Shown: piece after piece, positions 4,323-46,931 of the stretch
Layout of the letters: each line of letters begins with the position of its first letter
Position numbering within the stretch: position 1 is the first letter of the stretch
Assembly (NCBI GenBank): GCA_934087065.1
Contig: CAKOIS010000002.1
Location: 11,880 to 75,879, forward strand
Source of the DNA: an uncultured Bacilli bacterium
GTDB lineage: Bacteria; Bacillota_I; Bacilli_A; RF39; UBA660
Length of the DNA stretch: 64,000 nt
Reading direction: 5' to 3'
Position numbers and translations under genes: made by a program
Notes under the pieces: generated by a model
The model's input: only the letters and a program-made list of their open reading frames with translations
Told to the model about the DNA's origin: nothing
Databases searched by the model: none

Positions 4323-4359
4323 AATCTCACTTTTTATATTGACAATACCTACTAAAAAA

Positions 4360-4567
4360 TGATAACATTATCTTGTAATAGTGAGAGTAACAAAAATTCT
4401 CAAGTTTTAAAAAACAAAGGAGAGATACACATGAAAACAAAATACACTTTAAAACCTAGTATGGGGGGGGGTTATTTAACTAGCGTAAATAACTATAGTT
4501 TTCATGTGCAATTAAATGGATAGAATAATTCTACCCATTTTTTCGTGTGTAAGAAAAGAGGTAAGGT
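4360..4567 (+). promoter_or_regulatory. conserved leader, copy 1: palindrome gataacattatc, uORF (4431-4484) containing a G9 tract (4463-4471), and a hairpin plus T-run (about 4505-4535)
   Basis: About 80% nucleotide identity with the leaders at 23205-23405, 33855-34049 and 45105-45302. The G-tract length differs between copies. Confidence 0.6.
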
Positions 4568-4810
4568 ATGACAAATGAAGAATTAAAGAAAATTGTTGGA
4601 AGAAACGTAAAAAAGTATAGGCTTATATATAATGCGTACAACAAAGAAAAACTTACTCAGAAAGACTTAGCTGAAAAGATAGGTGCAAAGACACCTCTTA
4701 TAGGTGCTTTAGAAAGCGAGAACAACAACATGGGAATAAGTATATATAACTTATATATGATAAGTAAAGTACTAAATGTACCAATAGAAAAGTTTTTTGA
4801 GGAGGAATAA
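4568..4810 (+). CDS. XRE-family helix-turn-helix transcriptional regulator (80 aa)
   Basis: HTH_3-like segment LTQKDLAEKIGAKTPLIGALE. Lies between the conserved leader and paralog 1, and only in this copy. Confidence 0.55.
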   Translation: MTNEELKKIVGRNVKKYRLIYNAYNKEKLTQKDLAEKIGAKTPLIGALESENNNMGISIYNLYMISKVLNVPIEKFFEEE

Positions 4811-4815
4811 AGTAT

Positions 4816-7308
4816 ATGAAGAATAAAAAAGGAATGATATATGGAGTACTATTAATGACTTGTTTAGTAATAGGTTTATCTTATGGAGCATTTATATTTA
4901 GTACAGATAAATATAGAAGTAGTGAATTATTAATAAGTAAGTTAAACTATAGTATAGATATACAAGAAGACGGAAGTAATAAGTCTACAATTAATGGAAG
5001 TTCAGTAACAGTACCAGCTAGTACTAAAGTATATTTAAATATTACTTTAACAAGTGTAAATGAAATAGATAGTAAATATACTTTAGCATATAAAACTAGC
5101 ACAAACGCTAAAGTAGAGTACTCAGATAGAACACCATGGAACACACAAGGAGTAATAAAAGGAATAGACAGTAACACTTATTCAAAAAAGATAAGAGTAG
5201 TAATAGATAACACAAATATCTCAACACCATCTACAGTAAACTTTCAAGTATATGGTGGATACTCATTTAACTCATATGCAAATATAGAACTAACTGATGG
5301 ATATGTATCAGTAAGTGGACCATACACAGAAGTTGCAACAAACATAGGAAATAGACTAGTAGATATAATAGAAAGTGATACAAGTTGTTTAACAAGTAAT
5401 TCTAACACTTGCTTGTATGGTGGAGAGAACATTAAAAACTATGTACAATACCCAGAAGACAATGACAAAACAAAGAACTTATGGAGAATAATAGGAAGTT
5501 ATCAAATAGAAGATCAAACACTACCAAAACTAATAAGTCAAAGTACAAGTAGTACTAGTACTTCAACACTAACAACAGACTTAACAAGTTTCTATAACAC
5601 ATTAGAAGATAAAGAAGTATTAGTACAACAAACAAATAAATTTAATTGTTTTACTAATACTTGTGTAGAAAGCACTTACAACAATATTGGCTTACTAACA
5701 GACTATGAATATAATCAAATAGGTGGAGTAAACTCATACTTAGCAACTACAGAAAAATATTACATAAATAGTTCTAGCGGAATAAAAGAAGTAACATCAA
5801 GTGGGATAACAAACCCAAGTAATACAAGTGGACTAAAACCAACAATATACTTACAAACTGGAGTACAAGTAACAGGAAGTGGAACAGTGAGTGACCCATA
5901 CATCATAAGTCCAGCAAGTGATATAAATTTAGTTGCTTATACATTAAATGGACAAGCAACAGATAAAAATTATGCAGATTTACTTAAAACAAATGTAGTA
6001 GATAAAGTAACATGTAAAAACGGAACAACAGCAACATGGGACAATACAGATTTTTCAATAAAATTAAAGAATATACATACACCAGACTATTGTACAATTG
6101 ATTTTGGAGATGGATACAGTGTTAGTTTAACAGCAACAAATGGTACAGTAAGTCCATCAAATATAACTGTAGGATATAATGGAAGTGCAAGTTTTACTGT
6201 AACACCTAACAGTGGATATAAACTAGAACTTGAAACAAACACATGTGGCGGAACACTATCAGGAAGTACATATACAATAAGTAATGTAACAAGTGCAAAA
6301 AGTTGTAGTATAACATTCAAGTCTTCTACACAAACATTATATGCTAAACTGCTTGCTGATAAATCAACAGTATTAACAAGAACAGACTTTAGTAAAGTTT
6401 TAACAAATGACAATACAAACACATTATATACAGGAACAGAGAATGGAACAACAGTATATTATTTTGCAGGGAATGCAACAGATAATTGGGTAAAGTTTGG
6501 AAAGAATGCAACTAATCAAGACTTATACTGGAGAATAATAAGAACAAACTCAGATGGTGGAGTAAGACTACTATACCATGGAACAAGTACTACAGCAACA
6601 GATGCGGTTATAAACACAAGTACAGCATTTAATACAACATATAATAACCCAATGTATGTAGGATATATGTATGGAACAAGCGGTTCATTAGTAAATAATA
6701 GAACAAATACAAATAATAGTACAATAAAAGGAATAATAGATACATGGTATGAAAATAATCTAAAAACTAACTATACAAAATACTTAAGTACAACAGCAGT
6801 ATATTGCAATGATAGAAGTAACCCAGCAGGTGGATATAACACTGGAGGTACAACATTCTACTATGGTGGATATACACGATTAATAACAAATAAAACACCA
6901 ACATATGACTGTACAGACACTAACGATAAATTCACAGTAGACACAAGTACAGGAAACGGGAAACTAACATACCCAATAGCATTAATGACAGCAGACGAAG
7001 TAAGTTTTGCAGGTGGACTAGCGGGAACAAACGCACCAACATGGTATTATTATAATAGTGCAAAGGGTAGCTCAACAGGTGACACCAGGTGGTGGCTGTT
7101 GTCTCCTTACTATTGGAGTAGCGGCCACGCTTACGTGTTTCGCGTGTACGGTTCGTCCTACCCTGGCCGCTTGAACTACAACAACGTCAACTACACCGCT
7201 CTTGGTGTTCGTCCGGCAGTTTCTCTCAAATCTTGTATCAAGACAAGTGGAGGAGATGGCTCGGCAAACGCACCATACACAATAGAAGAAAGTACAAGTG
7301 GGTGCTAA
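4816..7308 (+). CDS. secreted/surface protein, paralog 1 (830 aa). N-terminal signal anchor and S/T-rich linker. The C-terminal half is homologous to paralogs 2-4 and ends in an adenine-depleted hypervariable domain (WWLLSP...GVRPAVSLKSC)
   Basis: RBS gaggagg. The C-terminal ~330 aa align with ORFs 23406, 34050 and 45303. Terminal CLec/DUF1566-like pattern (YW..S...AY.V.F.V.G....GVRP). Confidence 0.8.
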   Translation: MKNKKGMIYGVLLMTCLVIGLSYGAFIFSTDKYRSSELLISKLNYSIDIQEDGSNKSTINGSSVTVPASTKVYLNITLTSVNEIDSKYTLAYKTSTNAKVEYSDRTPWNTQGVIKGIDSNTYSKKIRVVIDNTNISTPSTVNFQVYGGYSFNSYANIELTDGYVSVSGPYTEVATNIGNRLVDIIESDTSCLTSNSNTCLYGGENIKNYVQYPEDNDKTKNLWRIIGSYQIEDQTLPKLISQSTSSTSTSTLTTDLTSFYNTLEDKEVLVQQTNKFNCFTNTCVESTYNNIGLLTDYEYNQIGGVNSYLATTEKYYINSSSGIKEVTSSGITNPSNTSGLKPTIYLQTGVQVTGSGTVSDPYIISPASDINLVAYTLNGQATDKNYADLLKTNVVDKVTCKNGTTATWDNTDFSIKLKNIHTPDYCTIDFGDGYSVSLTATNGTVSPSNITVGYNGSASFTVTPNSGYKLELETNTCGGTLSGSTYTISNVTSAKSCSITFKSSTQTLYAKLLADKSTVLTRTDFSKVLTNDNTNTLYTGTENGTTVYYFAGNATDNWVKFGKNATNQDLYWRIIRTNSDGGVRLLYHGTSTTATDAVINTSTAFNTTYNNPMYVGYMYGTSGSLVNNRTNTNNSTIKGIIDTWYENNLKTNYTKYLSTTAVYCNDRSNPAGGYNTGGTTFYYGGYTRLITNKTPTYDCTDTNDKFTVDTSTGNGKLTYPIALMTADEVSFAGGLAGTNAPTWYYYNSAKGSSTGDTRWWLLSPYYWSSGHAYVFRVYGSSYPGRLNYNNVNYTALGVRPAVSLKSCIKTSGGDGSANAPYTIEESTSGC
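7090..7227 (+). other. putative DGR variable region (VR) of paralog 1
   Basis: A-depleted, GC-rich stretch in an AT-rich gene. The codons that vary against paralogs 2-4 are NNC (tac, cac, cgc, aac, acc). Conserved scaffold codons lack A. A conserved 3' boundary (gtttctctcaaatcttgtgtcaagacaag) contains a small inverted repeat. Confidence 0.55.
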
Positions 7309-7492: not shown

Positions 7493-8845
7493 CTAAAACT
7501 CTACTGTTTCTACATTGCTTTGTATTTGATTATTTATTTGTTGTACTTGCTGTGTTACTTGTGGAGTAGGTTGCTGCTGTGGTGTTTCTTTTATACTGTG
7601 GGCTTTTTGTGCCATCTTTAGGTTTGCAACTAAGTTATCGTCTTTGTAAGCTGTCATATCATTTTCTAAGTCAACTATCTTTAGTATTTCTTCAAATGAT
7701 GTTTCTCCTTCAACAACTTTGTTTAACCCATCTTGTAATAGTGTAACAACTTCTCCAGTATAAACTAAATCTCTTAGAACGTGTTTAGGAGCATTATTAG
7801 TAATTGCGTCTTTTATTTTTTCATTCATTACTAGTACTTCTAGTATTGCAAGTCTTCCTCTATAACCATGGTTACATCTAGGACAGCCTTCTTTATTTGC
7901 AACATACATTTCATTTATATCTTTTCCTATAACTGTTTTAAATACTTGTTTTTCATATTCTGTAGTTTGTCTTTTAATCATACAGTTAGGACATAATTTT
8001 CTAGCAAGTCTTTGACTTATTATTCCTTCAAGTGAGCTACCAAGTAAGTATCTTTCTACATCCATATCAGTAAGTCTTTCAATAGTATTAAGTGAGTTAT
8101 TAGTGTGTAGTGTACTAAGAACTAAGTGTCCAGTAATTGAAGCACGTACGGCAATTCTAGCTGTTTCATCATCACGAATTTCTCCGATCATTATTATATT
8201 AGGGTCTTGTCTTAAAATACTTCTTAAAATAGTAGCAAATGTAAGACCAATTTCAGTTTGAGTTTGAACTTGGTTAATACCAGCAATATCCATTTCAACT
8301 GGGTCTTCAACTGTTATGATGTTAACTTCTTCAGTATTAAGCTTTTGAAGAATAGAGTACAAAGTAGTACTTTTACCAGTTCCAGTAGCACCAGTAACTA
8401 AGATAATTCCATTAGGTATTCTAATTAATTTATTAATCTTTTCCATCGCGTCTTTACTAAAGCCTAAGTTATCAAGTCCAGCTAAACTCATAGAGTAGTC
8501 TAGAATTCTTATAACTATTTTTTCTGCATTATTTGTAGGTAGTGTACTTACACGCAAATCAAGTAGTCTATCTCCAATTTTACTCTTAATCGCACCATCT
8601 TGAGGAAGACGCGTTTCCATTATATTCATACCGGCTATCATTTTGATACGACTTATCATATTTCTTTTATATTTACTAGGGACTATACTGTAATCACTTA
8701 ATATACCATCAATTCTAAAACGAATTTTCAAAGAGTCTTTAGATGGGTCAAAGTGAATATCACTTGCGCCCTTATTAACTGCGTCTATTATAATTTCATT
8801 TGCTATTTCAACAATAGGTAATTTTTCAAAATTAAATTCTTTCAT
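7493..8845 (-). CDS. pilB: type IV pilus assembly ATPase (PilB/GspE family)
   Basis: Walker A GATGTGKSTT. GspE-type Asp/His boxes. Tetracysteine C-x-x-C...C-x-x-C motif. 450 aa. Confidence 0.85.
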   Translation of the reverse strand: MKEFNFEKLPIVEIANEIIIDAVNKGASDIHFDPSKDSLKIRFRIDGILSDYSIVPSKYKRNMISRIKMIAGMNIMETRLPQDGAIKSKIGDRLLDLRVSTLPTNNAEKIVIRILDYSMSLAGLDNLGFSKDAMEKINKLIRIPNGIILVTGATGTGKSTTLYSILQKLNTEEVNIITVEDPVEMDIAGINQVQTQTEIGLTFATILRSILRQDPNIIMIGEIRDDETARIAVRASITGHLVLSTLHTNNSLNTIERLTDMDVERYLLGSSLEGIISQRLARKLCPNCMIKRQTTEYEKQVFKTVIGKDINEMYVANKEGCPRCNHGYRGRLAILEVLVMNEKIKDAITNNAPKHVLRDLVYTGEVVTLLQDGLNKVVEGETSFEEILKIVDLENDMTAYKDDNLVANLKMAQKAHSIKETPQQQPTPQVTQQVQQINNQIQSNVETVEF

Positions 8846-10903: not shown

Positions 10904-13528
10904 ATGAAATATGTTTATTTATTTAGTGAAGGAAATAAAGATATGAAAAATTTACTTGGAGGAAAAGGAGCTAACTTAGCAGAAATGACTAAACTTGGTT
11001 TACCTGTTCCACAAGGTTTTACTATAACAACTGAAGCTTGTACAAAATATTATGAAGATGGAGAAGTTATCAGTAAAGAAATAGAAAGTGAAATACTAGA
11101 AAACATTAAAAAGATGGAAAGTATTACTGGAAAAAGTTTTGGTAGTACAACAAACCCACTTTTAGTTAGTGTTAGAAGTGGTGCAAGAGCAAGCATGCCT
11201 GGTATGATGGACACAATACTAAATTTAGGATTAAATGAAAGTGTTGTAGAAACTTTAGCAGAAAAAAGTGGAAACGCTAGATGGGCATGGGACTCTTATA
11301 GAAGATTTATTCAAATGTATTCTGATGTTGTAATGGAAGTTGGAAAGAAATACTTTGAAGTGTTAATAGATAAAATGAAAGAAAGTAAAGGTGTTAAACT
11401 AGATACTGAGTTAACTAGTGAAGATTTAAAAGAACTTGCTAATATGTTTAAAGCTGAATATAAAAGCAAAGTAGGAAGTGACTTCCCAACAGACCCAGTT
11501 GAGCAATTAATGGGTGCAGTAAAGGCAGTATTCCGTAGTTGGGATAACCCAAGAGCAAACGTTTATAGAAGAGATAATGATATACCATATTCTTGGGGAA
11601 CAGCTGTAAATGTTCAAATGATGGCATTTGGTAATATGGGTGAAACATCAGGGACTGGTGTTGCATTTACAAGAGACCCAGCAACTGGAGAAAAACATTT
11701 AATGGGAGAATTCTTAATGAATGCTCAAGGAGAAGACGTAGTAGCAGGAGTTCGTACACCTGAACCTATTAGTCACTTAAAAGATGTGATGCCTATAGTA
11801 TACGAAGAATTTGTTGGTATTTGTGAAAAACTAGAAAATCATTATCATGATATGCAAGATATGGAGTTTACTATAGAAGATAAACATTTATATATGTTAC
11901 AAACTAGAAATGGTAAAAGAACTGCTAAGGCTGCATTAAAAATCGCGTGTGATTTAGTAGATGAAGGAAAAATTACAGACAAAGAAGCTGTTTTAATGAT
12001 AGACCCAAGAAACTTAGATACATTACTTCACCCAACATTTGACCCAGCTGAGTTAAAGAATGCTACTGAAATAGGAAAAGGGTTAGCTGCATCTCCTGGG
12101 GCCGCTAGTGGAAAAGTTGTATTTACTGCAGGGGACGCTAAAAAAATGCATGAAAGTGGAGAAAAAGTAGTGCTTGTAAGACTAGAAACATCTCCTGAAG
12201 ATATAGAAGGAATGAAATCAAGTGAAGGAATTTTAACAGTACGAGGTGGAATGACTTCTCATGCTGCTGTAGTTGCTCGTGGAATGGGTTCATGCTGTGT
12301 AAGTGGATGCTCTAGTATTGTGATGGATGAAGAAAACAAAGTCTTCACATTAGGTGGTTATACTTTTCATGAAGGAGATGAAATTTCTATAGATGGTTCA
12401 ACTGGTAAAATTTATAAGGGACTTATTAATAAGGTAGATGCAACTATCACTGGAGAGTTTGGTCGTATCATGGCTTGGGCTGATAAATATAGACGTCTTG
12501 GTGTTAGAACTAATGCTGATACACCAAAAGATGCATTAAAAGCAAGAGAACTTGGTGCAGAAGGTATAGGACTATGCCGAACTGAACACATGTTCTTTGA
12601 AAAAGATAGAATAGCTGCAATTAGAGAAATGATAGTATCTGATACCGTGGAAGAAAGAAAGGCTGCTTTAGCTAAAATTGAACCAATGCAACAAAAAGAC
12701 TTTGAAGCACTTTATGAAGCAATGGAAGAATATAGTGTAACAATAAGATACTTAGACCCACCACTACATGAATTTGTGCCTACTACAGAAGAAGACATTA
12801 AATTACTTGCTGATACTCAAGGAAAGAGTGTTGAACAAGTTAAAAATATTATTGCTTCACTTCATGAATTTAACCCAATGATGGGACATCGTGGTTGTCG
12901 TCTTGCTGTTACTTTCCCTGAAATAGCAGAAATGCAAACTGAAGCTGTTATAAAAGCTGCAATTGAAGTTAGTAAGAGAACTGGTAAAATGGTAACTCCT
13001 GAAATAATGATACCTTTAGTTGGTGAAGTTAAAGAATTAAAATATGTTAAAAATATAGTAACTAAAACAGCTGATGAGATTATTAAGAATGAAGAAATAG
13101 ATATGACTTATCATGTTGGTACAATGATAGAAATTCCACGTGCTGCTTTAACTGCAGATGAAATAGCAAAAGAAGCTGACTTCTTCAGTTTTGGTACTAA
13201 CGATTTAACTCAAATGACATTTGGTTTTTCAAGAGATGACGCAGGTAAATTCTTAACTGACTATTATGATAAAAAGATATATGAGAATGATCCATTTGCT
13301 AAACTAGACCAAAAAGGTGTTGGAAAACTTGTTAAAATGGCTAGTACTTTAGGAAGGGAAGCAAATCCTAACATACATTTAGGAATATGTGGAGAGCATG
13401 GAGGAGATCCATCAAGCGTAGAGTTCTGTCATAATGTAGGACTAGATTACGTATCTTGCAGCCCTTACCGTGTTCCAATAGCAAGGCTTAGTGCTGCGCA
13501 AGCCGCAATCAATAACGGGGATAAATAA
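10904..13528 (+). CDS. ppdK: pyruvate, phosphate dikinase
   Basis: 874 aa. ATP-grasp N-terminal domain, phosphohistidine domain GGMTSHAAVVARGMG, PEP-utilising C-terminal TIM barrel. Confidence 0.9.
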   Translation: MKYVYLFSEGNKDMKNLLGGKGANLAEMTKLGLPVPQGFTITTEACTKYYEDGEVISKEIESEILENIKKMESITGKSFGSTTNPLLVSVRSGARASMPGMMDTILNLGLNESVVETLAEKSGNARWAWDSYRRFIQMYSDVVMEVGKKYFEVLIDKMKESKGVKLDTELTSEDLKELANMFKAEYKSKVGSDFPTDPVEQLMGAVKAVFRSWDNPRANVYRRDNDIPYSWGTAVNVQMMAFGNMGETSGTGVAFTRDPATGEKHLMGEFLMNAQGEDVVAGVRTPEPISHLKDVMPIVYEEFVGICEKLENHYHDMQDMEFTIEDKHLYMLQTRNGKRTAKAALKIACDLVDEGKITDKEAVLMIDPRNLDTLLHPTFDPAELKNATEIGKGLAASPGAASGKVVFTAGDAKKMHESGEKVVLVRLETSPEDIEGMKSSEGILTVRGGMTSHAAVVARGMGSCCVSGCSSIVMDEENKVFTLGGYTFHEGDEISIDGSTGKIYKGLINKVDATITGEFGRIMAWADKYRRLGVRTNADTPKDALKARELGAEGIGLCRTEHMFFEKDRIAAIREMIVSDTVEERKAALAKIEPMQQKDFEALYEAMEEYSVTIRYLDPPLHEFVPTTEEDIKLLADTQGKSVEQVKNIIASLHEFNPMMGHRGCRLAVTFPEIAEMQTEAVIKAAIEVSKRTGKMVTPEIMIPLVGEVKELKYVKNIVTKTADEIIKNEEIDMTYHVGTMIEIPRAALTADEIAKEADFFSFGTNDLTQMTFGFSRDDAGKFLTDYYDKKIYENDPFAKLDQKGVGKLVKMASTLGREANPNIHLGICGEHGGDPSSVEFCHNVGLDYVSCSPYRVPIARLSAAQAAINNGDK

Positions 13529-13580: not shown

Positions 13581-13719
13581 TTTGATATAAATTTATATTT
13601 AATTAATTTTTATATAAAATTAATATAAAATTTGAAAATTAGACTAAGATATTGATTAATGTCGCATATCCTTAGCTTTTTTTATACTTTTTTGCGACAG
13701 GAAAAAAGGAGGTGAGAGA

Positions 13720-14181
13720 GTGCGAAATCGAATATATTTAAGGCCTGAACTTTATGATTTATCACAAGGAACAAGAATTAAATTTGTAAGGATATTTAGA
13801 CATTTAACTCAAGATAATATTTCAGATGATTTAGGAATAACTGGAGAAAACAAAAGAAGAACTTTAACTAGATATGAAAAAGGAGATAGAAATCCAAGTA
13901 AATCTAGATTACAGGAATTATCTAAGATACTTTTAGTAAATGATAATTTAATTAAACAATATGAATTTAAATGTGTATCAGATATTTTGTATTTTCTTTT
14001 ATGGTTAGAAGAAATGTTTCCTAAAATTAGAATTGATTTAGGAACAAATGATGAAACAATTAATTTATTCTTTGACGAATGGAATAATATGAGAGATAAA
14101 AAACAAAAAATGATAATTAATTATGAAGAATATTTTGAATGGAAGATAAATTATAAAGTAAAGGAAGATAGTAATGAATGA
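13720..14181 (+). CDS. hypothetical protein with XRE-like HTH (GTG start)
   Basis: RBS aaggaggtgagag. HTH-like DNISDDLGITGENKRRTLTRYEKG. Sits in an AT-rich island. Confidence 0.4.
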   Translation: MRNRIYLRPELYDLSQGTRIKFVRIFRHLTQDNISDDLGITGENKRRTLTRYEKGDRNPSKSRLQELSKILLVNDNLIKQYEFKCVSDILYFLLWLEEMFPKIRIDLGTNDETINLFFDEWNNMRDKKQKMIINYEEYFEWKINYKVKEDSNE

Positions 14182-23002: not shown

Positions 23003-23209
23003 ATGAATTTAACATATCAAAACAAAACTCTATATATAGATCTAGTAGGAGATGTGAACATAACAGAAGTAACAAAGAAAGTCACAAGTATTAGTGATAC
23101 ATACAAAATAAATAACTTAGTAGTTAATACAGATGAGGCATTCATTACTGACTACAAAAAAGCAAAACTAAAAAAAATAATAAGTAACACTCTTGACAAC
23201 CCTAATTAA
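23003..23209 (+). CDS. hypothetical small protein (68 aa)
   Basis: RBS agaggaaaa. No recognisable motif. Confidence 0.25.
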   Translation: MNLTYQNKTLYIDLVGDVNITEVTKKVTSISDTYKINNLVVNTDEAFITDYKKAKLKKIISNTLDNPN

Positions 23210-23405
23210 AAAATGATAAGATTATCTTGTAATAAAGATAGGAAGTGAAGCACATGGAAGTTAATTCTTTAGTACAAAACAAAGTACAAATTGGGGGGGG
23301 GTTATTTAAATAGTATAAATAACTATAGTTTTTCATGTGCAATTATATGGATAGAATAAGTCTACCCATTTTTTCGTGTCTTAAAAAGAAAGGAGTGCAT
23401 TAAAT
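23205..23405 (+). promoter_or_regulatory. conserved leader, copy 2: palindrome gataagattatc, uORF from ATG 23255, G10 tract 23293-23302, hairpin plus T-run about 23346-23372
   Basis: Homologous to the leaders at 4360, 33855 and 45105. Confidence 0.6.
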
Positions 23406-24905
23406 ATGCAAAGGAAACAATTAACACTTGTAATAGTAAGCTTACTAGTAGTAGTACTAAGTGTATCACTTGCTTACTTTACAGCACAAATAATAGGAAA
23501 GGGAAAAGATGTAAGTGTAACAAGCGCAAACCTACAAATAGTATTTACAGATAGTGATGGAGCTTTAACAGAAACTGATATAGAACCTGGCTGGACTAAA
23601 ACTAAAACATTTACTATTAAAAATGATACTAAGATAGAATACAAATATAATATAGTAATAAAAGACTTATTAAATACTTTTGTAACTAATGGATACTTAA
23701 AGTACAAGATAACTAGTACAAATAATGGATATAATATGACTGAGTTTAAAGATATTCCAAAGTCTAGTGCACCTAAAGATACAATATTAGCTTATAGTGT
23801 AGTAATACCTAATGGAGTAACACAAAGTTATACAATTGAATTTAAGTATGCAAACGATGAAAGTGTAGACCAAAGTGATGATATGGGTAAGAAACTAAGT
23901 GGAACACTATTTATAACTGAGGAAACAGAAGATCCAAACAAAACACTATATAATCAATTACTTGTAGACAAATCAAAAGTATTAACAAGAACAGACTTTA
24001 GTAAAGTTTTAATAGATAATAATACAAACACATTATATACTTCTACTGAAGATAGTAAAACAGTATATTATTTTGCAGGGAATGCAACAGATAACTGGGT
24101 AAAGTTTGGAAAGAATGCAAGTAATCAAGACTTGTACTGGAGAATAATAAGAACAAACTCAGATGGTAGTGTAAGACTTCTTTACCACGGAACAAGTACT
24201 ACAGCAACAGATGCATATATTGGTGAATCAGCATTTAATAATAGTAGTTATACTAATATAGCATATGTAAGTTATATGTACGGAAGTACAGGAAGTATAG
24301 CAAATGCTAGAACTAACCAAAAAAACTCTAGTACAATAAAAGACAAAATAGATAACTGGTATAAAATCAACTTAGAAGCAAAAGGTTATACAAAATACTT
24401 AAGTACAACAGCAGTATATTGTAATGATAGAACATATGCAGTATCTGGAGATACATACTTTGGAGCATACACAAGACTAATAACAAATAAAACACCAAGT
24501 TATGACTGTGCAACAACAGAAGACAAATTCACAGTAGACACAAGTACAGGTAACGGAAAACTAACATATCCAATAGCATTAATGACAGCAGACGAAGTAA
24601 GTTTTGCAGGTGGACGATATGGTACAAATGCACCAACATGGTATTATTATAATAGTGCAAATGGTAGTTCTACAGAATCAAATGCTTGGTGGTTGTTGTC
24701 TTCTCGCAATTGGAATGGCGGCGACGCTATTGTGTTCTTCGTGTATGGTTCGTCCGAACAACCTGGCAATTTGAGCAACAGTAGGGTTGACGGCACTTAC
24801 GGTGTGCGTCCAGCCTTATCACTAAAATCTTGTGTAAAATATGCAAGTGGAGATGGCTCAGCAAGTGACCCATACACAATAAAAGAAACTACAAATGGAT
24901 GCTAA
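23406..24905 (+). CDS. secreted/surface protein, paralog 2 (499 aa) with C-terminal A-depleted hypervariable domain
   Basis: N-terminal signal anchor MQRKQLTLVIVSLLVVVLSVSLA. First ~170 aa nearly identical to paralogs 3 and 4. C-terminus WWLLSS...GVRPALSLKSC. Confidence 0.85.
   Translation: MQRKQLTLVIVSLLVVVLSVSLAYFTAQIIGKGKDVSVTSANLQIVFTDSDGALTETDIEPGWTKTKTFTIKNDTKIEYKYNIVIKDLLNTFVTNGYLKYKITSTNNGYNMTEFKDIPKSSAPKDTILAYSVVIPNGVTQSYTIEFKYANDESVDQSDDMGKKLSGTLFITEETEDPNKTLYNQLLVDKSKVLTRTDFSKVLIDNNTNTLYTSTEDSKTVYYFAGNATDNWVKFGKNASNQDLYWRIIRTNSDGSVRLLYHGTSTTATDAYIGESAFNNSSYTNIAYVSYMYGSTGSIANARTNQKNSSTIKDKIDNWYKINLEAKGYTKYLSTTAVYCNDRTYAVSGDTYFGAYTRLITNKTPSYDCATTEDKFTVDTSTGNGKLTYPIALMTADEVSFAGGRYGTNAPTWYYYNSANGSSTESNAWWLLSSRNWNGGDAIVFFVYGSSEQPGNLSNSRVDGTYGVRPALSLKSCVKYASGDGSASDPYTIKETTNGC
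24687..24824 (+). other. putative DGR variable region (VR) of paralog 2
   Basis: A-depleted. Variable NNC/NNT codons (cgc, aat, ggc, gac, att, ttc, agc, aac, agt, gac, ggc, act, tac). One extra codon relative to copies 1 and 3. Confidence 0.5.
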
Positions 24906-31217: not shown

Positions 31218-33011
31218 ATGAAAAAGAATAAAAAGAACGTTCATAAAGTTTCATTATTTACTAATTTGTCCTATGTTCTTAAACAAATGGCAACTGAATT
31301 ATATAAAACAGCTAAGTTTGCTGGGTTAGGCTTATTTAAAGTTTTTGATTTTATAATGACTAACTTAATTACAATAGTAACATATATTTTCTATGCGATA
31401 TATTATATTAGTATGTATATTGGAAAATTTACTTATACTTTAGGTAAATTCATGTATTATAAAGTGTTTAAACCTATTGGTTTTGAAGTATATTATTTAT
31501 TTAAAGCAATGTACTTGGGTGCTTACAGGGTAGGTAAAATATTATTTTATGAAATTCCTTTATTTATATTTAACTCATTTAGTGACTTTTTTGACTTGAT
31601 AAGAAAAAAATTAAAACTATTAAAAGAAAGACTAATGTATTTCTTTAAACATACACCTAATACAGTTAAAAATTACTTCTTAGATAGATTTAACAATATT
31701 AGTATAGTAAAACACTATAGGAATAAGAAAGAAAGAGAATTAGAAGTTCTATTAATAGATAAGTTTGGTAAAGATGCTGAAAGGACCAGCAAAAAACAGA
31801 CTTATAAATACTTAGTAAGAAATGAAGAAGGTAAACTAATTACTGGATATTTTGCAGCTTTATCTAGGTTAGATGTGCATTCATACTTACTTGATGAAGG
31901 ATATGAAGTATACGAGATTAAAACAAACTGGTGGATAAATTTTGCACATGGAGAAAGTAAGTACTTAGAAAAGCAAATGAAAGCAAAAGACTTAATTTTC
32001 TGGTTAGCCCAGTTAAGTACTTATTTAAAAGCAGGAATACCACTTACTGATTCAGTTAAAATACTTGCTGAACAAGATAAAAGAAAAAAATATAAAAAGA
32101 TATATGACTCAGTTATATATGAGTTATCTATGGGTGAAGCATTTAGTGATGCTTTAAGAAAACAAGGAAGTGTGTTTCCACCTTTACTAATTAATATGAT
32201 TAAAGGTGCAGAACTAATAGGAGACTTAGAAAACACACTTGACGATATGAGTAAATACTATGAAGAAAGAGAATCAACTAGAAAACAATTAATAGGTTCA
32301 CTTGTATACCCAGCTGTAATACTAGTGTTCTCATTAGTTGTAGTAATATTTATGGTAGTATATATAATACCTCAATTTGAAGGAATATACTCAAGCTTAG
32401 GTGCAGAGTTAAACCCAATAGTATTATTCTTACTTAAATTTAGTGCATTCTTAAAAACTAATTATATGTTACTAATTGCAGGATTTATATTAGTAGTAGT
32501 ACTATTAACATTTATGTATAAAAAAGTTAAAGCTTTTAGAACACTAGTACAATATATAGCAATGCATCTACCATTAGTAGGGAAACTAATTATATATAAT
32601 GAAATGCACTTATTTGCAAAAACATTTAGTGTACTTAATAAAAATAATGTACTTTTAACTGATAGTATAGATATACTTAGTAAAATAACTAGTAATGAAT
32701 TTTATAAAATGATAATGTATGACACAATTAGTAACTTATTAAGAGGAGACAAAATAAGTTTATCATTTAAAGACAACTGGGCTGTTCCAACACTAGCTTA
32801 TTACATGATATCAACTGGTGAAGCAACAGGTGAATTAAGTGAAATGTTAGAAAAAGTAAGCGTTTATTATGAACAAGAACAAAGAAACTTGGGTAACTCA
32901 TTAAAAACGCTAATTGAACCAATACTTATGATTATATTAGCTGTTATAGTTGGTGGAATAATGATTTCTATAATCGTGCCAATGTATGATATAACAAAGA
33001 ACATCTTGTAG
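31218..33011 (+). CDS. pilC: type IV pilus inner-membrane platform protein (PilC/GspF family) with a ~190-aa N-terminal extension
   Basis: Two GspF-type domains. The canonical PilC N-terminus (TYKYLVRNEEGKLITGYFAALS) begins around aa 196. Strong RBS agaggtgaagg at 31218. Confidence 0.8.
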   Translation: MKKNKKNVHKVSLFTNLSYVLKQMATELYKTAKFAGLGLFKVFDFIMTNLITIVTYIFYAIYYISMYIGKFTYTLGKFMYYKVFKPIGFEVYYLFKAMYLGAYRVGKILFYEIPLFIFNSFSDFFDLIRKKLKLLKERLMYFFKHTPNTVKNYFLDRFNNISIVKHYRNKKERELEVLLIDKFGKDAERTSKKQTYKYLVRNEEGKLITGYFAALSRLDVHSYLLDEGYEVYEIKTNWWINFAHGESKYLEKQMKAKDLIFWLAQLSTYLKAGIPLTDSVKILAEQDKRKKYKKIYDSVIYELSMGEAFSDALRKQGSVFPPLLINMIKGAELIGDLENTLDDMSKYYEERESTRKQLIGSLVYPAVILVFSLVVVIFMVVYIIPQFEGIYSSLGAELNPIVLFLLKFSAFLKTNYMLLIAGFILVVVLLTFMYKKVKAFRTLVQYIAMHLPLVGKLIIYNEMHLFAKTFSVLNKNNVLLTDSIDILSKITSNEFYKMIMYDTISNLLRGDKISLSFKDNWAVPTLAYYMISTGEATGELSEMLEKVSVYYEQEQRNLGNSLKTLIEPILMIILAVIVGGIMISIIVPMYDITKNIL

Positions 33012-33022
33012 GGGGAAACAAA

Positions 33023-33760
33023 ATGATTTACGTATTTATATTTATAACTGGTGTATGCCTAGGAAGTTTTTATGCTTGTATAGGCTACAGAATTCCAAAC
33101 AAAATTAGTACAGTAAAACCTAGTAGTTTTTGTCCAAACTGTAAAAAAAGTTTAAAGTGGTATATGAATATACCACTTCTAAGCTATATATTTTTAAAAG
33201 GAAAATGCGCTTACTGTAAAGAAAAGATAAGTATAACTTACTTTCTAATAGAACTAACTACAGGAATACTTTTCTTAATAAGCTACATGATATTTGGATT
33301 AAACTATCAATTAATAGTAGTATTAACTCTAATAAGTGCCTTAATGGTTAGTTTAGTAACAGACTTAAAATATTACTACATTTCAGATAGAGTAATAGTA
33401 GTTTCTTCTATTTTAGTAGCGTTTACTTACTTAAAATTCTTAGGAGTTAACTCATTTTTAAGCCATATACTATCAGGCGCTTTGATGTTTATATTAATGT
33501 ATTTACTAAAAATAATAACTACAAAAATATTTAAAAAAGAGTCACTAGGTGACGGGGACATCAAACTAATGATACTTATTGGTTTAACACTAGGAGTGTT
33601 TAACTCGTTTATTTCTTTATTTATATCAAGCGTAACAGCGCTTATATATACAATACTATTTATAAAGAAGAAAGATGCACTTATCCCATTTGGACCTTTC
33701 CTTTTAATAGGTGCGATAGTTACATACATTCTAGTTTTTTATCAAATAACTATAATATAG
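33023..33760 (+). CDS. pilD: prepilin peptidase (A24 family)
   Basis: N-terminal CPNC...CAYC zinc-binding module. Catalytic-region motif GDGDIKLM. Polytopic membrane protein. Confidence 0.85.
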   Translation: MIYVFIFITGVCLGSFYACIGYRIPNKISTVKPSSFCPNCKKSLKWYMNIPLLSYIFLKGKCAYCKEKISITYFLIELTTGILFLISYMIFGLNYQLIVVLTLISALMVSLVTDLKYYYISDRVIVVSSILVAFTYLKFLGVNSFLSHILSGALMFILMYLLKIITTKIFKKESLGDGDIKLMILIGLTLGVFNSFISLFISSVTALIYTILFIKKKDALIPFGPFLLIGAIVTYILVFYQITII

Positions 33761-33854
33761 TCTCATTTCGTAAAAACTTGCAAATGCAGGAAAGTTCGGA
33801 ATGAGTTTTTATAAAATATGTAAAACATGTGAAAAAAACTTGAAATATAGTGCT

Positions 33855-34049
33855 TTTTTTGATAAGATTATCTTGTAATAAAGATAGGAAGTGAAGTACA
33901 TGAAAATTAACTCTTTAGTACAAAATAAAGTACAAAATGGGGGGGGGTTATTTAACTAGCATAAATAACTATAGTTTTTCATGTGCAATTAAATGGATAG
34001 AATAAGTCTATCCATTTTTCGTGTCTTAAAAAGAAAGGAGAGCATTAAT
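33855..34049 (+). promoter_or_regulatory. conserved leader, copy 3: palindrome gataagattatc, uORF from ATG 33900, G9 tract 33939-33947, perfect 11-bp hairpin plus T-run about 33991-34026
   Basis: Homologous to the other three leaders. The hairpin aaatggataga-ataag-tctatccattt is followed by tttcgtg. Confidence 0.6.
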
Positions 34050-35531
34050 ATGCAACGAAAACAATTAACACTTGTAATAGTAAGCTTACTTGTAGTAGTA
34101 CTAAGTGTATCACTAGCTTACTTTACAGCACAAATAATAGGAAAGGGGAAAACTGTAGACGTTAGTAGTGCTAACTTACAAATAGTATTTACAGATAGTG
34201 ATGGAGCTTTAACAGAAACTGATATAGAACCAGGCTGGAGTGCAACTAAAACATTTACTATTAAAAATGATACTAAGACAGAATACAAATATAATATAGT
34301 AATAAAAGACTTATTAAATACTTTTGTAACAGAAGGATATTTACAATACAAAATAACTAGTACAAACGATGGATATAATATGACTGAGTTTAAAGATATT
34401 CCAAAGTCTAGTATAGCAACAGATACAATACTAGCTTATAGTGTAGTAATACCTAATGGAGTAACACAAAGTTACACAATTGAATTTAAGTATGCAAACG
34501 ATGAAAGTGTAGACCAAAGTGATGATATGGGTAAGAAACTAAGTGGAACATTATTTATAACTGAAGGAACAGAAGATCCAAATAAAACACTATATAATCA
34601 ATTACTTGTAGACAAATCAACAGTATTAACAAGAACAGACTTTAGTAAAGTTTTAACAGATAATAATACAAACACATTATATACTTCTACTGAAGACAGT
34701 AAAACAGTATATTATTTTGCAGGGAATGCAACAGATAACTGGGTAAAGTTTGGAAAGAATGAAAGTAATCAAGATTTATACTGGAGAATAATAAGAACAA
34801 ACTCAGATGGTGGAGTAAGACTACTATATCATGGCACAAGTACTACAGCAACAGACGCATATATAGGAATATCAAAATTTAATACAGAATATAATGATCC
34901 AATGTATGTAGGATATATGTATGGAACAAGCGGATCACTAGTAAACAACAGAACAAATATAAGTGATAGTACAATAAAAACAACACTAGATAATTGGTAT
35001 AAAGATAATTTGAATACAAATTATGGAAAATACTTAAGTACAACAGCAGTATATTGTAACGATAGAAGTACATCAAATGATACATCCTTTGGAGCATTCA
35101 CAAGACTAAAAACAAATAAAACACCAAGTTATGACTGTGCAGCAACAGAAGACAAATTCACAGTAGATAATAGTACAGGCAACGGTAAACTAACATACCC
35201 AATAGCCTTAATGACAGCAGACGAAGTAAGTTTTGCAGGTGGACTATGGGCAACAAATGCTTCTACTTGGTATTATTATAATAGTGCAAACGGAAGCTCA
35301 ACAGGCTCAAACTGGTGGTGGTTGTTGTCTCCTCGCCTTTGGATTGGCGGCTACGCTAGCGTGTTCAACGTGAACGGTTCGTCCGGCCCTGGCCGCTTGT
35401 ACTTCGACGACGTCAACAACTCTTACGGTGTGCGTCCGTCAGTTTCTCTCAAATCTTGTGTCAAGACAAGTGGTGGAGATGGCTCAGCAAGCACACCATA
35501 CACAATAGAAGAAACTTCAAGTGGATGCTAA
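34050..35531 (+). CDS. secreted/surface protein, paralog 3 (493 aa; start moved from 33993 to the conserved MQRKQ ATG)
   Basis: RBS aaaggagag plus ATG 34050 is the position conserved in paralogs 2 and 4. C-terminus WWLLSP...GVRPSVSLKSC. Confidence 0.85.
   Translation: MQRKQLTLVIVSLLVVVLSVSLAYFTAQIIGKGKTVDVSSANLQIVFTDSDGALTETDIEPGWSATKTFTIKNDTKTEYKYNIVIKDLLNTFVTEGYLQYKITSTNDGYNMTEFKDIPKSSIATDTILAYSVVIPNGVTQSYTIEFKYANDESVDQSDDMGKKLSGTLFITEGTEDPNKTLYNQLLVDKSTVLTRTDFSKVLTDNNTNTLYTSTEDSKTVYYFAGNATDNWVKFGKNESNQDLYWRIIRTNSDGGVRLLYHGTSTTATDAYIGISKFNTEYNDPMYVGYMYGTSGSLVNNRTNISDSTIKTTLDNWYKDNLNTNYGKYLSTTAVYCNDRSTSNDTSFGAFTRLKTNKTPSYDCAATEDKFTVDNSTGNGKLTYPIALMTADEVSFAGGLWATNASTWYYYNSANGSSTGSNWWWLLSPRLWIGGYASVFNVNGSSGPGRLYFDDVNNSYGVRPSVSLKSCVKTSGGDGSASTPYTIEETSSGC
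35313..35450 (+). other. putative DGR variable region (VR) of paralog 3
   Basis: 17 A in about 138 nt within an AT-rich genome. All but one A lie in NNC codons (att, tac, agc, aac, aac, tac, gac, gac, aac, aac, tac). Scaffold codons (tgg tgg ttg ttg tct cct ... ggt tcg tcc ... cct ggc cgc ttg ... ggt gtg cgt ccg) are A-free. Confidence 0.55.
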
Positions 35532-45084: not shown

Positions 45085-45104
45085 AGGTACTTGAAAAGAG
45101 TATC

Positions 45105-45302
45105 TTTTTTTGATATCATTAATTATGTAATAAAGATAGGAAGTGAAGTACATGAAAATTAACTCTTTAGTACAAAATAAAGTACAATATGGGGGGGGTT
45201 ATTTAAATAGTATAAATAACTATAGTTTTTCATGTGCAATTAAATGGATAGAATAAGTCTATCCATTTTTTCGTGTCTTAAAAAGAAAGGAGAGCATTAA
45301 AT
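45105..45302 (+). promoter_or_regulatory. conserved leader, copy 4: uORF from ATG 45152, G8 tract 45191-45198, perfect hairpin plus T-run about 45239-45272
   Basis: Homologous to the other leaders. With 8 G the uORF stays in frame through the left arm of the hairpin and stops at the TAA in its loop. Confidence 0.6.
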
Positions 45303-46931
45303 ATGCAACGAAAACAATTAACACTTGTAATAGTAAGCTTACTTGTAGTAGTACTAACTGTATCACTAGCTTACTTTACCGTACAAATAATAGGAAAGGG
45401 GAAATCTGTAGACGTAACAAGTGCTAACTTACAAATAGTATTCACAGATAGTGATGGAGCTTTAACAGAAACTGATATAGAACCTGGCTGGACTAAAACT
45501 AAAACATTTACTATTAAAAATGATACTAAGATAGAATACAAATATAATATAGTAATAAAAGACTTATTAAATACTTTTGTAACTAATGGATACTTAAAGT
45601 ACAAGATAACTAGTACAAATAATGGATATAATATGACTGAGTTTAAAGATATTCCAAAGTCTAGTGCACCTAAAGATACAATATTAGCTTATAGTGTAGT
45701 AATACCTAATGGAGTAACACAAAGTTATACAATTGAATTTAAGTATGCAAACGATGAAAGTGTAGACCAAAGTGATGATATGGGTAAGAAACTAAGTGGA
45801 ACTCTTTATATAGAGAAAGGGACTTTACCAACGTTAAGTGAGAAACTTTTTGCTGATAACCCAACAATACAAACAAGAAGTTCATTTGATGCAGTATTTA
45901 CTGAAACAAACACAGGAACTTTATATAAAGCAACAGAAAGTATAGCAGGTAGTCCTGCAAAAGATGTGTATTACTTTGCAGGAGATGCAAAGAATAACTG
46001 GGTTAATTTTGGAAAATATCAAACAGATTATGTTGTCTATAGAGGTTATTCTGAAACAGGCAGTAAATACATAGATTATTTGACAATGGATGCATGTACT
46101 AGTGCCTCAAATTATAATATTAATTGTACTGAACAAATATATTGGAATAAGGGTAATGATATATACTGGAGAATAGTAAGAACAAACTACGATGGAAGTG
46201 TAAAACTTCTATATGCGGGAAATAGCCCTGATACAACAAGTGGATACATAGGAACAAGTGCATTCAATAGCACAAATAATGATTCAATGTATGTAGGATA
46301 TAAATATGGTACAAGTGGGACTCTAGCAAATAACAGATTAAATACAAATGATAGTACAATAAAAACTTTTATAGATAACTGGTATAGTAATAACTTAACA
46401 AGTTATACAAAATATATAAGTACAGAAGCAGTATATTGTAATGACAGAAAAGCACTAAGCTATAGTATAAGTAGTTCTTTTGATTACTATGTACAAACAA
46501 GACTAGGTGCAGGAAATCCAACATATGATTGTGAAGATAGTAGTGATGCATTTTCAGGAAGTAATAGTGAAGCAAAATTAACACACCCAATAGGACTAAT
46601 GACAGCAGATGAAATAACATATGCAGGTGGTAAAGATACTACAGGCTTAACAAGTCCATATGCATGGTATTATCTAAACAGTGCTGGGGAAAGTATAACC
46701 GGAACACAATGGTGGTGGTCCTTGTCACCTCGACTCTGGAATGGTGTCATTTCGTACGTTTGGTTCGTTTTTGGTTCTTCTATTCCGGGTGCCCTTTTGA
46801 GCACCGCCGATGTGAACTTTGAGAATGGTGTTCGCCCCGCCATTTCTCTCAAATCTTGTGTCAAGACAAGTGGTGGAGATGGTTCAGCTAGTAACCCATA
46901 CACAATACAAGAAACAGCAAGTGGTTGTTAA
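45303..46931 (+). CDS. secreted/surface protein, paralog 4 (542 aa), with a more divergent C-terminal half and an A-depleted hypervariable terminal domain
   Basis: The N-terminal 170 aa are nearly identical to paralogs 2 and 3. The C-terminal domain WWWSLSP...GVRPAISLKSC is related but more diverged. Confidence 0.85.
   Translation: MQRKQLTLVIVSLLVVVLTVSLAYFTVQIIGKGKSVDVTSANLQIVFTDSDGALTETDIEPGWTKTKTFTIKNDTKIEYKYNIVIKDLLNTFVTNGYLKYKITSTNNGYNMTEFKDIPKSSAPKDTILAYSVVIPNGVTQSYTIEFKYANDESVDQSDDMGKKLSGTLYIEKGTLPTLSEKLFADNPTIQTRSSFDAVFTETNTGTLYKATESIAGSPAKDVYYFAGDAKNNWVNFGKYQTDYVVYRGYSETGSKYIDYLTMDACTSASNYNINCTEQIYWNKGNDIYWRIVRTNYDGSVKLLYAGNSPDTTSGYIGTSAFNSTNNDSMYVGYKYGTSGTLANNRLNTNDSTIKTFIDNWYSNNLTSYTKYISTEAVYCNDRKALSYSISSSFDYYVQTRLGAGNPTYDCEDSSDAFSGSNSEAKLTHPIGLMTADEITYAGGKDTTGLTSPYAWYYLNSAGESITGTQWWWSLSPRLWNGVISYVWFVFGSSIPGALLSTADVNFENGVRPAISLKSCVKTSGGDGSASNPYTIQETASGC
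46710..46850 (+). other. putative DGR-type variable region (VR) of paralog 4, a divergent class
   Basis: About 12% A. The conserved 3' boundary tttctctcaaatcttgtgtcaagacaagtggtggagatgg is shared with copies 1 and 3. Confidence 0.45.

Follow-up and report, generated by a model that had tools for sequence, protein, structure and literature searches.

A G8-G10 tract in a leader open reading frame as a probable phase-variable transcription attenuator in an uncultured gut bacterium of the Bacilli

We analyzed a 64,000-nucleotide (nt) stretch of the genome of an uncultured Bacilli bacterium (assembly GCA_934087065.1, contig CAKOIS010000002.1, positions 11,880 to 75,879 of the forward strand), hereafter the window. 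A conserved leader at about 23193-23405, which we call copy 2, precedes a gene for a secreted protein of 499 amino acids (aa) and aligns with three further copies in the window. Copy 2 is probably a phase-variable leader-peptide transcription attenuator, which would be represented four times in the window and hundreds of times in public gut assemblies. The evidence for this reading is the anatomy of the leader, a reading-frame logic maintained across its relatives and polymorphism of the tract length at one and the same locus.

According to the proposed mechanism, a promoter at 23193-23222 would start a leader of about 180 nt that holds a short upstream open reading frame (uORF) with its own ribosome-binding site (ATG at 23254) and a G8-G10 tract inside it. 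A hairpin followed by a U tract (23348-23374) would come about 50 nt further on, 31 nt 5' of the secreted-protein gene. Slipped-strand mispairing at the G tract during replication would shift the reading frame. With G8 or G11, the ribosome would synthesize a 34-35-aa peptide and halt at a TAA in the hairpin loop, covering both arms, so that the terminator could not form, RNA polymerase would read through and the gene would be ON. With G9 or G10, it would leave at a TAG or TAA just after the tract, 38-42 nt 5' of the hairpin; the terminator would then form, most transcripts would end there and the gene would be OFF or low. Translation of the uORF, termination at the hairpin and its prevention by a ribosome on the loop stop are inferences from the sequence. 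On these premises copy 2, as it stands in the window, is predicted to be OFF, although it may be leaky, copies 1 and 4 are predicted to be ON, and copy 3 OFF. The elements of copy 2 and the gene that follows it are listed below.

23193-23222, + strand: promoter with TTGACA, an 18-nt spacer, TAAGAT and an extended -10 TG (TGATAAGAT); promoter scan 10/12 plus TG
23240-23248, + strand: Shine-Dalgarno-like AGGAAGTGA of the uORF, 5 nt 5' of its ATG, read from the sequence
23254-23313, + strand: uORF in the G9 state of the window, encoding MEVNSLVQNKVQIGGGLFK, from ATG 23254 to the stop TAG 23311-23313; from translation and a simulation of the G6-G12 frames
23293-23301, + strand: G9 homopolymer within the uORF 23254-23313, the proposed slipped-strand switch
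23307-23313, + strand: out-of-frame stops 3' of the tract, TAA 23307-23309 (G7/G10) and TAG 23311-23313 (G6/G9/G12)
23301-23323, + strand: small hairpin P2, GTTATTTA, loop AATAGTA, TAAATAAC, -4.1 kcal/mol by folding
23250-23340, + strand: long-range helix P1, GCACATGGAA (23250-23259, spanning the uORF start codon) paired with TTTTCATGTGC (23330-23340) in the minimum-free-energy fold
23348-23374, + strand: terminator-like hairpin, (T)GGATAGA, loop ATAAG, TCTACCC(A), then T6; -5.7 kcal/mol
23390-23395, + strand: Shine-Dalgarno AAGGAG of the regulated gene, read from the sequence
23406-24905, + strand: regulated gene, 499 aa; hydrophobic N-terminal segment (signal or anchor, ..SLAYFTAQ..), then a beta-sandwich, and a DUF6273-like region at the C-terminus

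The promoter appears to be of the sigma-70 type and of good quality. In the hairpin, the arms GGATAGA (23349-23355) and TCTACCC (23361-23367) pair with a single A.C mismatch, the T6 occupies 23369-23374, and the hairpin-reaching frame (G8/G11) ends at the loop TAA, 23357-23359; the regulated-gene ATG follows the T tract at a distance of 31 nt. Simulated changes of tract length move the end of the uORF between three positions only: the loop stop at 23357-23359 with G8/G11 (34-35-aa peptide), the TAG 38 nt 5' of the hairpin arm with G6/G9/G12, and the TAA 42 nt 5' of it with G7/G10. The window itself reads ...ATT GGG GGG GGG TTA TTT AAA TAG. The original prediction, made from the sequence alone, had assigned copy 2 a G10 tract (23293-23302) and a uORF ending with gtt att taa (TAA 23307-23309), but 23302 is a T, and that TAA closes the G10 frame, which is known at this locus only from another sample (L069); in the window the uORF ends at TAG 23311-23313. 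Its assignment of copy 2 to a "hairpin-intact" state nevertheless stands, since the stop lies 38 nt before the 5' arm, even though the tract and the stop behind that call were misassigned.

Other features of copy 2 may bear on its behavior. A direct repeat, AGTACAAAA, occurs twice in the uORF (23270-23292 and equivalents), and leader L061 has lost one unit; the A run 5' of the tract varies as well (A3 or A4, and A8 in L030). Together, the loss of a repeat unit and the A-run variation imply that the frame can shift at more than one site. Immediately 3' of the tract stands TTATTT (23302-23307), a motif common in A+T-rich DNA, which we take to fit the TTNTTT NusG-dependent pause motif of Bacillus subtilis and which might help synchronize ribosome and polymerase. 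Upstream, a conserved 68-aa open reading frame (ORF) with no family match (23003-23209) ends at the leader promoter; it is also called as a gene in contigs from Hadza guts.

The other three leaders of the window are arranged as follows.

4339-4543, + strand: leader copy 1, with promoter 4339-4368, uORF 4431-4523, G9 at 4463-4471 and terminator 4518-4543
33840-34019, + strand: leader copy 3, with promoter 33840-33868, uORF 33900-33959, G9 at 33939-33947, an early TAG and a perfect terminator 33995-34019
45091-45271, + strand: leader copy 4, with promoter 45091-45119, a 34-aa uORF 45152-45256, G8 at 45191-45198 and a perfect terminator 45242-45271

That the four leaders carry the same elements, as had been proposed, is borne out by the alignment, and so is the G8 call for copy 4. 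A 30-nt core running from the tract to the hairpin, TTTTCATGTGCAATTANATGGATAGAATAA, is present four times in the window against zero expected. With a window G+C content of about 29%, runs of at least eight G occur only in the four leaders (starting at 4463, 23293, 33939 and 45191; 7 overlapping matches versus 0.03 expected), where they occupy the same position. Copies 2-4 are alike from the -10 box into the start of their paralogous genes, promoters equivalent to that of copy 2 precede copies 3 and 4, and the -10 region aligns across all four copies. Copy 1 has a mosaic structure: its promoter and its 3' module (G tract through U tract) are those of the other copies, but the 5' half of its uORF is different and brings its own ribosome-binding site, AAAGGAGA. 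Its stop (TAG 4521-4523) falls within the 5' arm of the hairpin, which is thereby reached, and it precedes a helix-turn-helix (HTH) gene (4568-4810) followed by an 830-aa gene (4816-7308). The full-length uORF of copy 4 ends at a TAA in the hairpin loop and is followed by the regulated gene 45303-46931. Copies 1 (G9, with the other 5' module) and 4 (G8) thus reach the hairpin, whereas copies 2 and 3 (both G9) do not. The gene regulated by copy 3 starts at 34050. The ORF list begins it within the 5' arm of the terminator (33993-35531, MDRISLSIF...), but the true start is the ATG at 34050 (MQRKQL...) behind AAAGGAG, an annotation trap peculiar to copy 3, which has T5 and not T6.

Relatives were collected with an exact 20-base pattern from the 3' module, searched in GTDB (one genome per species) and in metagenome contigs. 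The genomes yielded four copies in a metagenome-assembled genome (MAG) named "Bacillota bacterium UBA11492" and one in an "uncultured Eubacteriales" MAG, and the metagenomes 60 loci, nearly all from human gut; one Citrobacter match among the genomes and one marine match among the metagenomes were discarded as chance. The resulting set comprises 68 leaders (the 4 of the window plus 64 from GTDB genomes and gut metagenomes; 54 distinct sequences); L numbers denote individual leaders or their contigs. Their tracts are G8, G9 or G10, with G6, G5 and G4 once each, and 12 leaders have no long tract. The AGGAAGTGA ribosome-binding site, kept in copies 2-4, also recurs in most metagenome leaders. Conservation of the 3' module stops exactly at the U tract, beyond which the sequence up to the gene differs by gene class. 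With nhmmer, run over all the DNA that had been fetched, two divergent leaders came to light that have no G tract and do not contain the search pattern.

13697-13805 of the L053 contig: divergent tract-less leader
11566-11673 of the L032 contig, - strand: divergent tract-less leader; the uORFs of this pair are of the type MSSTIVQNKVLNKWYY...KWIE, then stop

Both precede other genes on contigs that also bear standard leaders. Since they lack the pattern, the cassette family must be wider than the exact-pattern search reveals.

The frame logic seen by simulation in copy 2 holds across this set. When each leader is translated from the ATG nearest its ribosome-binding site, the hairpin-reaching ORFs have 20-35 codons and end at a loop TAA or TGA, or, in the copy 1 type, at a TAG within the 5' arm; the remaining ORFs halt at a TAA or TAG just 3' of the tract, 38-49 nt before the hairpin. 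Exactly one frame in three reaches the hairpin, and the other two stop 38-49 nt upstream of it, in 50 of the 51 tract-bearing leaders; the sole exception is L037, where an insertion is present. The hairpin-reaching frame is also the one found in each of the 12 leaders that have no long G tract, which represent about three sequence types (35-aa, 20-aa and G4 forms). The two divergent leaders reach the hairpin as well, L053 with a TGA in the loop and L032 with a TAA 2 nt before the arm. Each of two unrelated 5' modules supplies a ribosome-binding site and an ATG 32-39 nt 5' of the tract. Leaders with at least G6 (n = 47) divide into 21 full-length and 26 truncated uORFs, as expected of a switch caught in both states. 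That the hairpin-reaching frame is the ON state is our inference: the tract-less, "locked" leaders are always in that frame before intact genes, and the long peptide corresponds to the ON state in pil1 of Streptococcus gallolyticus.

The regularities of the uORF could also be read as those of a functional peptide gene, with the hairpin as its terminator, a tract that switches the peptide and an independent downstream gene. Gene calls do include the full-length 34-aa product on hundreds of contigs (one identical sequence on 454 of them, the longest of about 1.2 Mb), and the C-terminal part of the peptide, ..NNYSFSCAIKWIE, is common to several leader types. Most of this shared C-terminus, however, follows necessarily from the search pattern and from the hairpin, the 5' arm of which encodes KWIE and the stop. 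L053 ends in ..NNFLHKIKWIE, and copy 1 reaches the hairpin in another frame (..SFHVQLNG), so it is the position of the stop that is conserved and not the peptide sequence; the N-terminal half of the peptide varies freely. Moreover, the 15-34 nt between the U tract and the next gene leave no room for a promoter, and the module always stands directly 5' of a gene from the same few classes. We regard a separate peptide gene as unlikely. A conserved arrest peptide was likewise rejected as a candidate, because the KWIE ending stems from the hairpin arm and the remainder differs in L053 and copy 1.

The tract might instead work through the DNA itself, by tuning a second promoter inside the leader (TTTTCA, 16 nt, TAGAAT; 23330-23357) in its strength or in the phasing of an activator. 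Tracts upstream of or within promoters are a known type of switch, as in Neisseria nadA and Bordetella fim, and our scan scored a 9/12 promoter-like site at this place in copies 2, 3 and 4. The match is weak, though, with nearly as many in shuffled sequence (8 found versus 5.2 expected), and the tract lies about 30 nt 5' of the internal -35, outside the spacer. Nor would an internal promoter account for the ribosome-binding site and start codon, for the rule that one frame in three reaches the hairpin, for the tract-less leaders being in frame, or for a 3' arm and U tract that are conserved past the putative -10. We give it only a slim chance.

Tract length varies at a single locus: copy 2 is found with G8, G9 and G10 in three assemblies (L068 with a 34-aa uORF, the window and L069, respectively), the identity of the locus being established by an identical 861-aa PolA neighbor and an identical or nearly identical 499-aa protein. 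A protein 100% identical to that of copy 2 occurs on a Hadza gut contig where the tract is G8 and the 34-aa ORF has been called as a gene, and lookup through the identical neighboring PolA led to a second Hadza sample with G10 at this locus. Near-identical leaders differing in tract length form further groups: L009 (G8) and L047 (G9), with which L032 (G10) groups by leader sequence; L010, L052 (G9) and L056 (G10); L023 (G9) and L059 (G10); and L025 (G8), L042 and L060 (G9). Between the window and L067/L068, the 195 nt 5' of the tract and the entire 499-aa protein are identical, and four other differences (23347, 23360, 23397 and about 23402) all fall between the tract and the start codon, a clustering that looks like gene conversion between leader copies. 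Several contigs are broken at or just after the tract or show a run of N there (L006, about 4724-4970; and the starts of L029, L017, L018, L038 and L055), which could reflect within-sample mixtures of lengths or a tract that sequences poorly.

Such breaks and N runs (L006, L029, L017, L038, L055), and the proneness of G homopolymers of 8-10 to error on short-read platforms, would also suit a reading in which the length differences are assembly or sequencing noise and the leader is a fixed structure of the 5' untranslated region or a constitutive attenuator. Real heterogeneity within a sample, however, would break contigs at the tract equally. G8-G10 is kept at the same position in dozens of independent assemblies despite a G+C content of 29%, the G8 and G10 at the copy 2 locus come from assembly consensus at 8x and 37x coverage, and the stops for both other frames are precisely placed in 50 of 51 leaders. 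Noise as the whole explanation is therefore a slighter prospect still than an internal promoter.

Tract length appears to leave RNA structure untouched. The leader folds better than shuffled sequence (z = -3.6), and its predicted fold does not change from G7 to G11 (-31.1 to -31.2 kcal/mol; terminator pair probabilities of at least 0.91), so that length would act only via the reading frame or at the DNA level. An effect of tract length on the RNA alone was accordingly rejected, structure and terminator pairing being identical from G7 to G11. No competing antiterminator helix appeared in the folds, where the terminator coexists with P1 and P2. An antiterminator in which AAAUGGG, where the tract begins, would pair with CCCAUUU of the 3' arm was considered by eye and dropped, since no predicted fold uses this pairing and the bases before the tract vary (ATG, ATT, ATA, AAG, ACG). 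For P1, the RNAalifold consensus has 9 pairs with one-sided G-U changes only; RNAalifold found no compensatory covariation for P1 or the terminator, in a test of low power given that the 3' strands are fixed by the search pattern. By eye, two double changes in L053 leave a short P1 (U-AUG-U / A-CAU-A) intact. At the position of P2 the relatives carry three unrelated hairpin-forming sequences, and the shortest tract-less leaders have no P2. As speculation, P1 and P2 might serve as pause, spacer or ribosome-polymerase synchronizing elements. Rfam 15 gave no match to the leader at the gathering score, and a permissive search only chance-level ones (E >= 0.38); the sole Rfam match in the window is the ribosomal protein L21 leader RF00559 (40919-40990, 37.9 bits), consistent with a Bacillota origin.

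Least probable of all is a structured RNA (a riboswitch, a leader bound by a protein, or a small RNA whose 3' end is the terminator) under the control of a ligand or factor and with a structural tract, which the better-than-shuffled fold, the conserved helix P1 and the hairpin P2 would favor but which the missing Rfam family match and compensatory covariation, the absence of P2 from short leaders, the indifference of the predicted structure to tract length and folds without alternative antiterminator pairing all speak against. None of these four alternatives explains together the frame rule, the in-frame tract-less leaders and a conservation that ends at the U tract.

Several points nonetheless weigh against a phase-variable attenuator. 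The support for switching consists of comparative sequence, predicted folds and a published analogue. The invariance of the 3' module and the shared FSCAIKWIE ending arise in part because the search pattern lies there, and many leaders are closely related, so that our counts overstate the number of independent events. Homopolymer sequencing errors could be behind some of the length differences between assemblies. Among tract-bearing leaders the full-length frame is not significantly more frequent than one third (21/47, p = 0.07). The locked leaders retain their terminator, for which the attenuator model gives no explanation. RNA polymerase is reported to outrun ribosomes in B. subtilis, which makes ribosome-mediated attenuation less common in Bacillota, even if examples exist (bmrCD, vmlR), and ribosome-polymerase coupling is probably loose in some Bacillota. 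Finally, the hairpin of copy 2 is weak, as in most relatives (-5.7 kcal/mol with its A.C mismatch, compared with -11.8 kcal/mol for copies 3 and 4), and the hairpins of copies 2 and 3 fail a terminator scan that the hairpin of copy 4 passes.

The original prediction had noted this mismatch correctly but treated tctaccc as a deviation, when TCTACCC is the norm of the family, found in 57 of the 68 leaders; the perfectly pairing TCTATCC occurs in 5 of 68. A weak hairpin as the family norm makes it probable that termination is partial and that the "off" state is leaky. It follows, too, that copies 2 and 4 make a confounded comparison of tract lengths (G9 versus G8), their terminators differing in strength (-5.7 versus -11.8 kcal/mol).

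The closest parallel that we found is provided by the pil1 and pil3 loci of S. gallolyticus, where GCAGA repeats lie in a leader-peptide gene followed by a terminator; mutagenesis of pil1 proved the logic, with an OFF stop 39 bp before the terminator and an ON stop inside or adjoining it (Danne et al. 2014, PMC3894217). Both systems combine a slippage-prone repeat in a leader ORF with a stem-loop terminator, here a putative one, and then a surface-structure gene, occur at more than one locus per genome and reside in a Gram-positive gut host. The early stop, about 39 bp before the hairpin there and 38-42 nt here, goes with low expression in S. gallolyticus, and the late stop with high expression. 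The differences are equally clear: the repeat is GCAGA x 13-22 there and a G8-G10 homopolymer here, no GCAGA array being present in the window; two of three frames are long (ON) there, and only one of three reaches the hairpin here; the terminator has -28 kcal/mol in pil3 and -5.7 to -11.8 kcal/mol here; and the targets are sortase pili there and DUF6273-type secreted paralogues plus an HTH regulator here. With no sequence relationship seen, pil1/pil3 looks like an analogue rather than a homologue of the poly-G leader. The attenuation model of the original prediction thus gains comparative sequence support and, in pil1, a precedent; termination, read-through and translation of the uORF keep the status of predictions.

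Other attenuators share single traits with this leader. In Escherichia coli pyrBI, the leader ORF runs through the terminator hairpin, and a closely following ribosome masks the hairpin with no need for an antiterminator helix; pyrBI senses uridine triphosphate via polymerase pausing. The poly-G leader likewise has no predicted antiterminator helix, but what varies in it would be the frame of the uORF, altered by heritable length changes in the DNA. The bmrCD and vmlR attenuators of Bacillota, which govern antibiotic-responsive genes, rely on drug-induced stalling and alternative RNA pairings. They resemble the attenuator proposed here in having a leader peptide and an intrinsic terminator in a Gram-positive background, with ribosome position as the deciding factor, and differ from it in that here no alternative pairing is predicted and the input would be genetic. 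Sensing of the trp or his type finds no basis in the leader, as the peptide contains no codon runs except the Gly of the tract and the folds no competing helix.

Homopolymer phase variation within coding regions is also a feature of Neisseria and Haemophilus. Poly-G tracts vary in the same manner in coding regions of Campylobacter jejuni (PMC11955535). The leaders described here have in common with this classical switching a G8-G10 tract in a low-G+C genome, a state set by the frame and surface-exposed targets. They depart from it in that the tract lies in a separate leader ORF, the structural gene remains untouched and the proposed output is transcriptional read-through. Our literature searches, with incomplete journal coverage, found no second leader-peptide attenuator acting as a phase switch besides the S. 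gallolyticus pili, and none with a homopolymer.

Three classes of genes follow the cassette. The first encodes MQRKQLTLVIV... proteins 430-640 aa long, the second MKK(L/F)D(I/L)G... proteins 510-944 aa long, and the third an 80-aa HTH protein with an 830-aa family member behind it. All of the large proteins have a hydrophobic N-terminus ending in ..SLA(Y/W/F)F.., a beta-sandwich and one or two modules weakly matching DUF6273. The products of copies 3 and 4 share 84% and 69% protein identity with that of copy 2, and the family as a whole counts more than 7,600 matches, a lower bound from a saturated search. The AlphaFold model of the 499-aa protein has a predicted local distance difference test score of 60.8 and is confident only for residues 41-170, the beta-sandwich. 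Foldseek returned weak generic matches (TasA fibre 8aur at E = 1.9e-3, rank 19), a PDB sequence search with the regulated protein was empty, and Pfam and NCBIfam gave no match to the SipW signal peptide, Peptidase_M73 or TasA/camelysin families; the ..SLAYFTAQ.. motif presumably does no more than resemble the SipW class. From the model, the product is best described as "secreted beta-sandwich plus DUF6273-like" and nothing narrower.

The regulated genes stand singly amid polA, genes for gyrase/topoisomerase IV subunits, hrcA-grpE and murT-gatD, and near type IV pilus-like genes. The latter, of type IV pilus or type II secretion character, lie near leaders 1 and 3 at 7493-8845 (- strand), 31218-33011 (+ strand) and 33023-33760 (+ strand); they encode a T2SSE ATPase, a T2SSF platform protein and an A24 prepilin peptidase, and leader 3 begins right after the peptidase gene. 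The idea that the regulated proteins are type IV pilins, prompted by these PilB-, PilC- and PilD-like neighbors, was abandoned, as inspection by eye found no G/FxxxE prepilin signature at their N-termini. The 80-aa HTH gene behind copy 1 is XRE-like by eye and is found in other strains behind tract-less, permanently in-frame leaders (L008, L024, L040, L041, L046). The position of the copy 1 leader ahead of this gene implies that a transcription regulator may itself be phase-variable.

A wider and more tentative proposal, which we hold to be doubtful as a whole, is that this prevalent human-gut Bacillota lineage runs genome-wide combinatorial surface variation from one portable cassette, consisting of the G tract, two out-of-frame stops and a terminator with a stop codon in its loop, which recombination has placed before many paralogous secreted-protein genes and an HTH regulator. 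Each cell might then express a random subset of the family, with the regulator adding a regulon-level layer, as an independently evolved homopolymer version, of a mechanism known so far from a single streptococcal species, in which P1 and P2 may synchronize the ribosome with the polymerase.

If the attenuator reading is true, leader-peptide phase switching is no curiosity but would have arisen independently with a homopolymer, and at least four loci per genome and hundreds of public gut contigs would use it. Its target would be a very large, fast-diversifying secreted family in an uncultured commensal of Hadza and other human guts. The 34-aa "hypothetical proteins" annotated at these loci are probably regulatory read-outs and not genes with a product of their own. 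Since the rule is a simple one, tract length modulo 3, the ON or OFF state of each locus should be readable from metagenomes, and existing read data would then suffice to test how surface variation proceeds in this uncultured gut bacterium.

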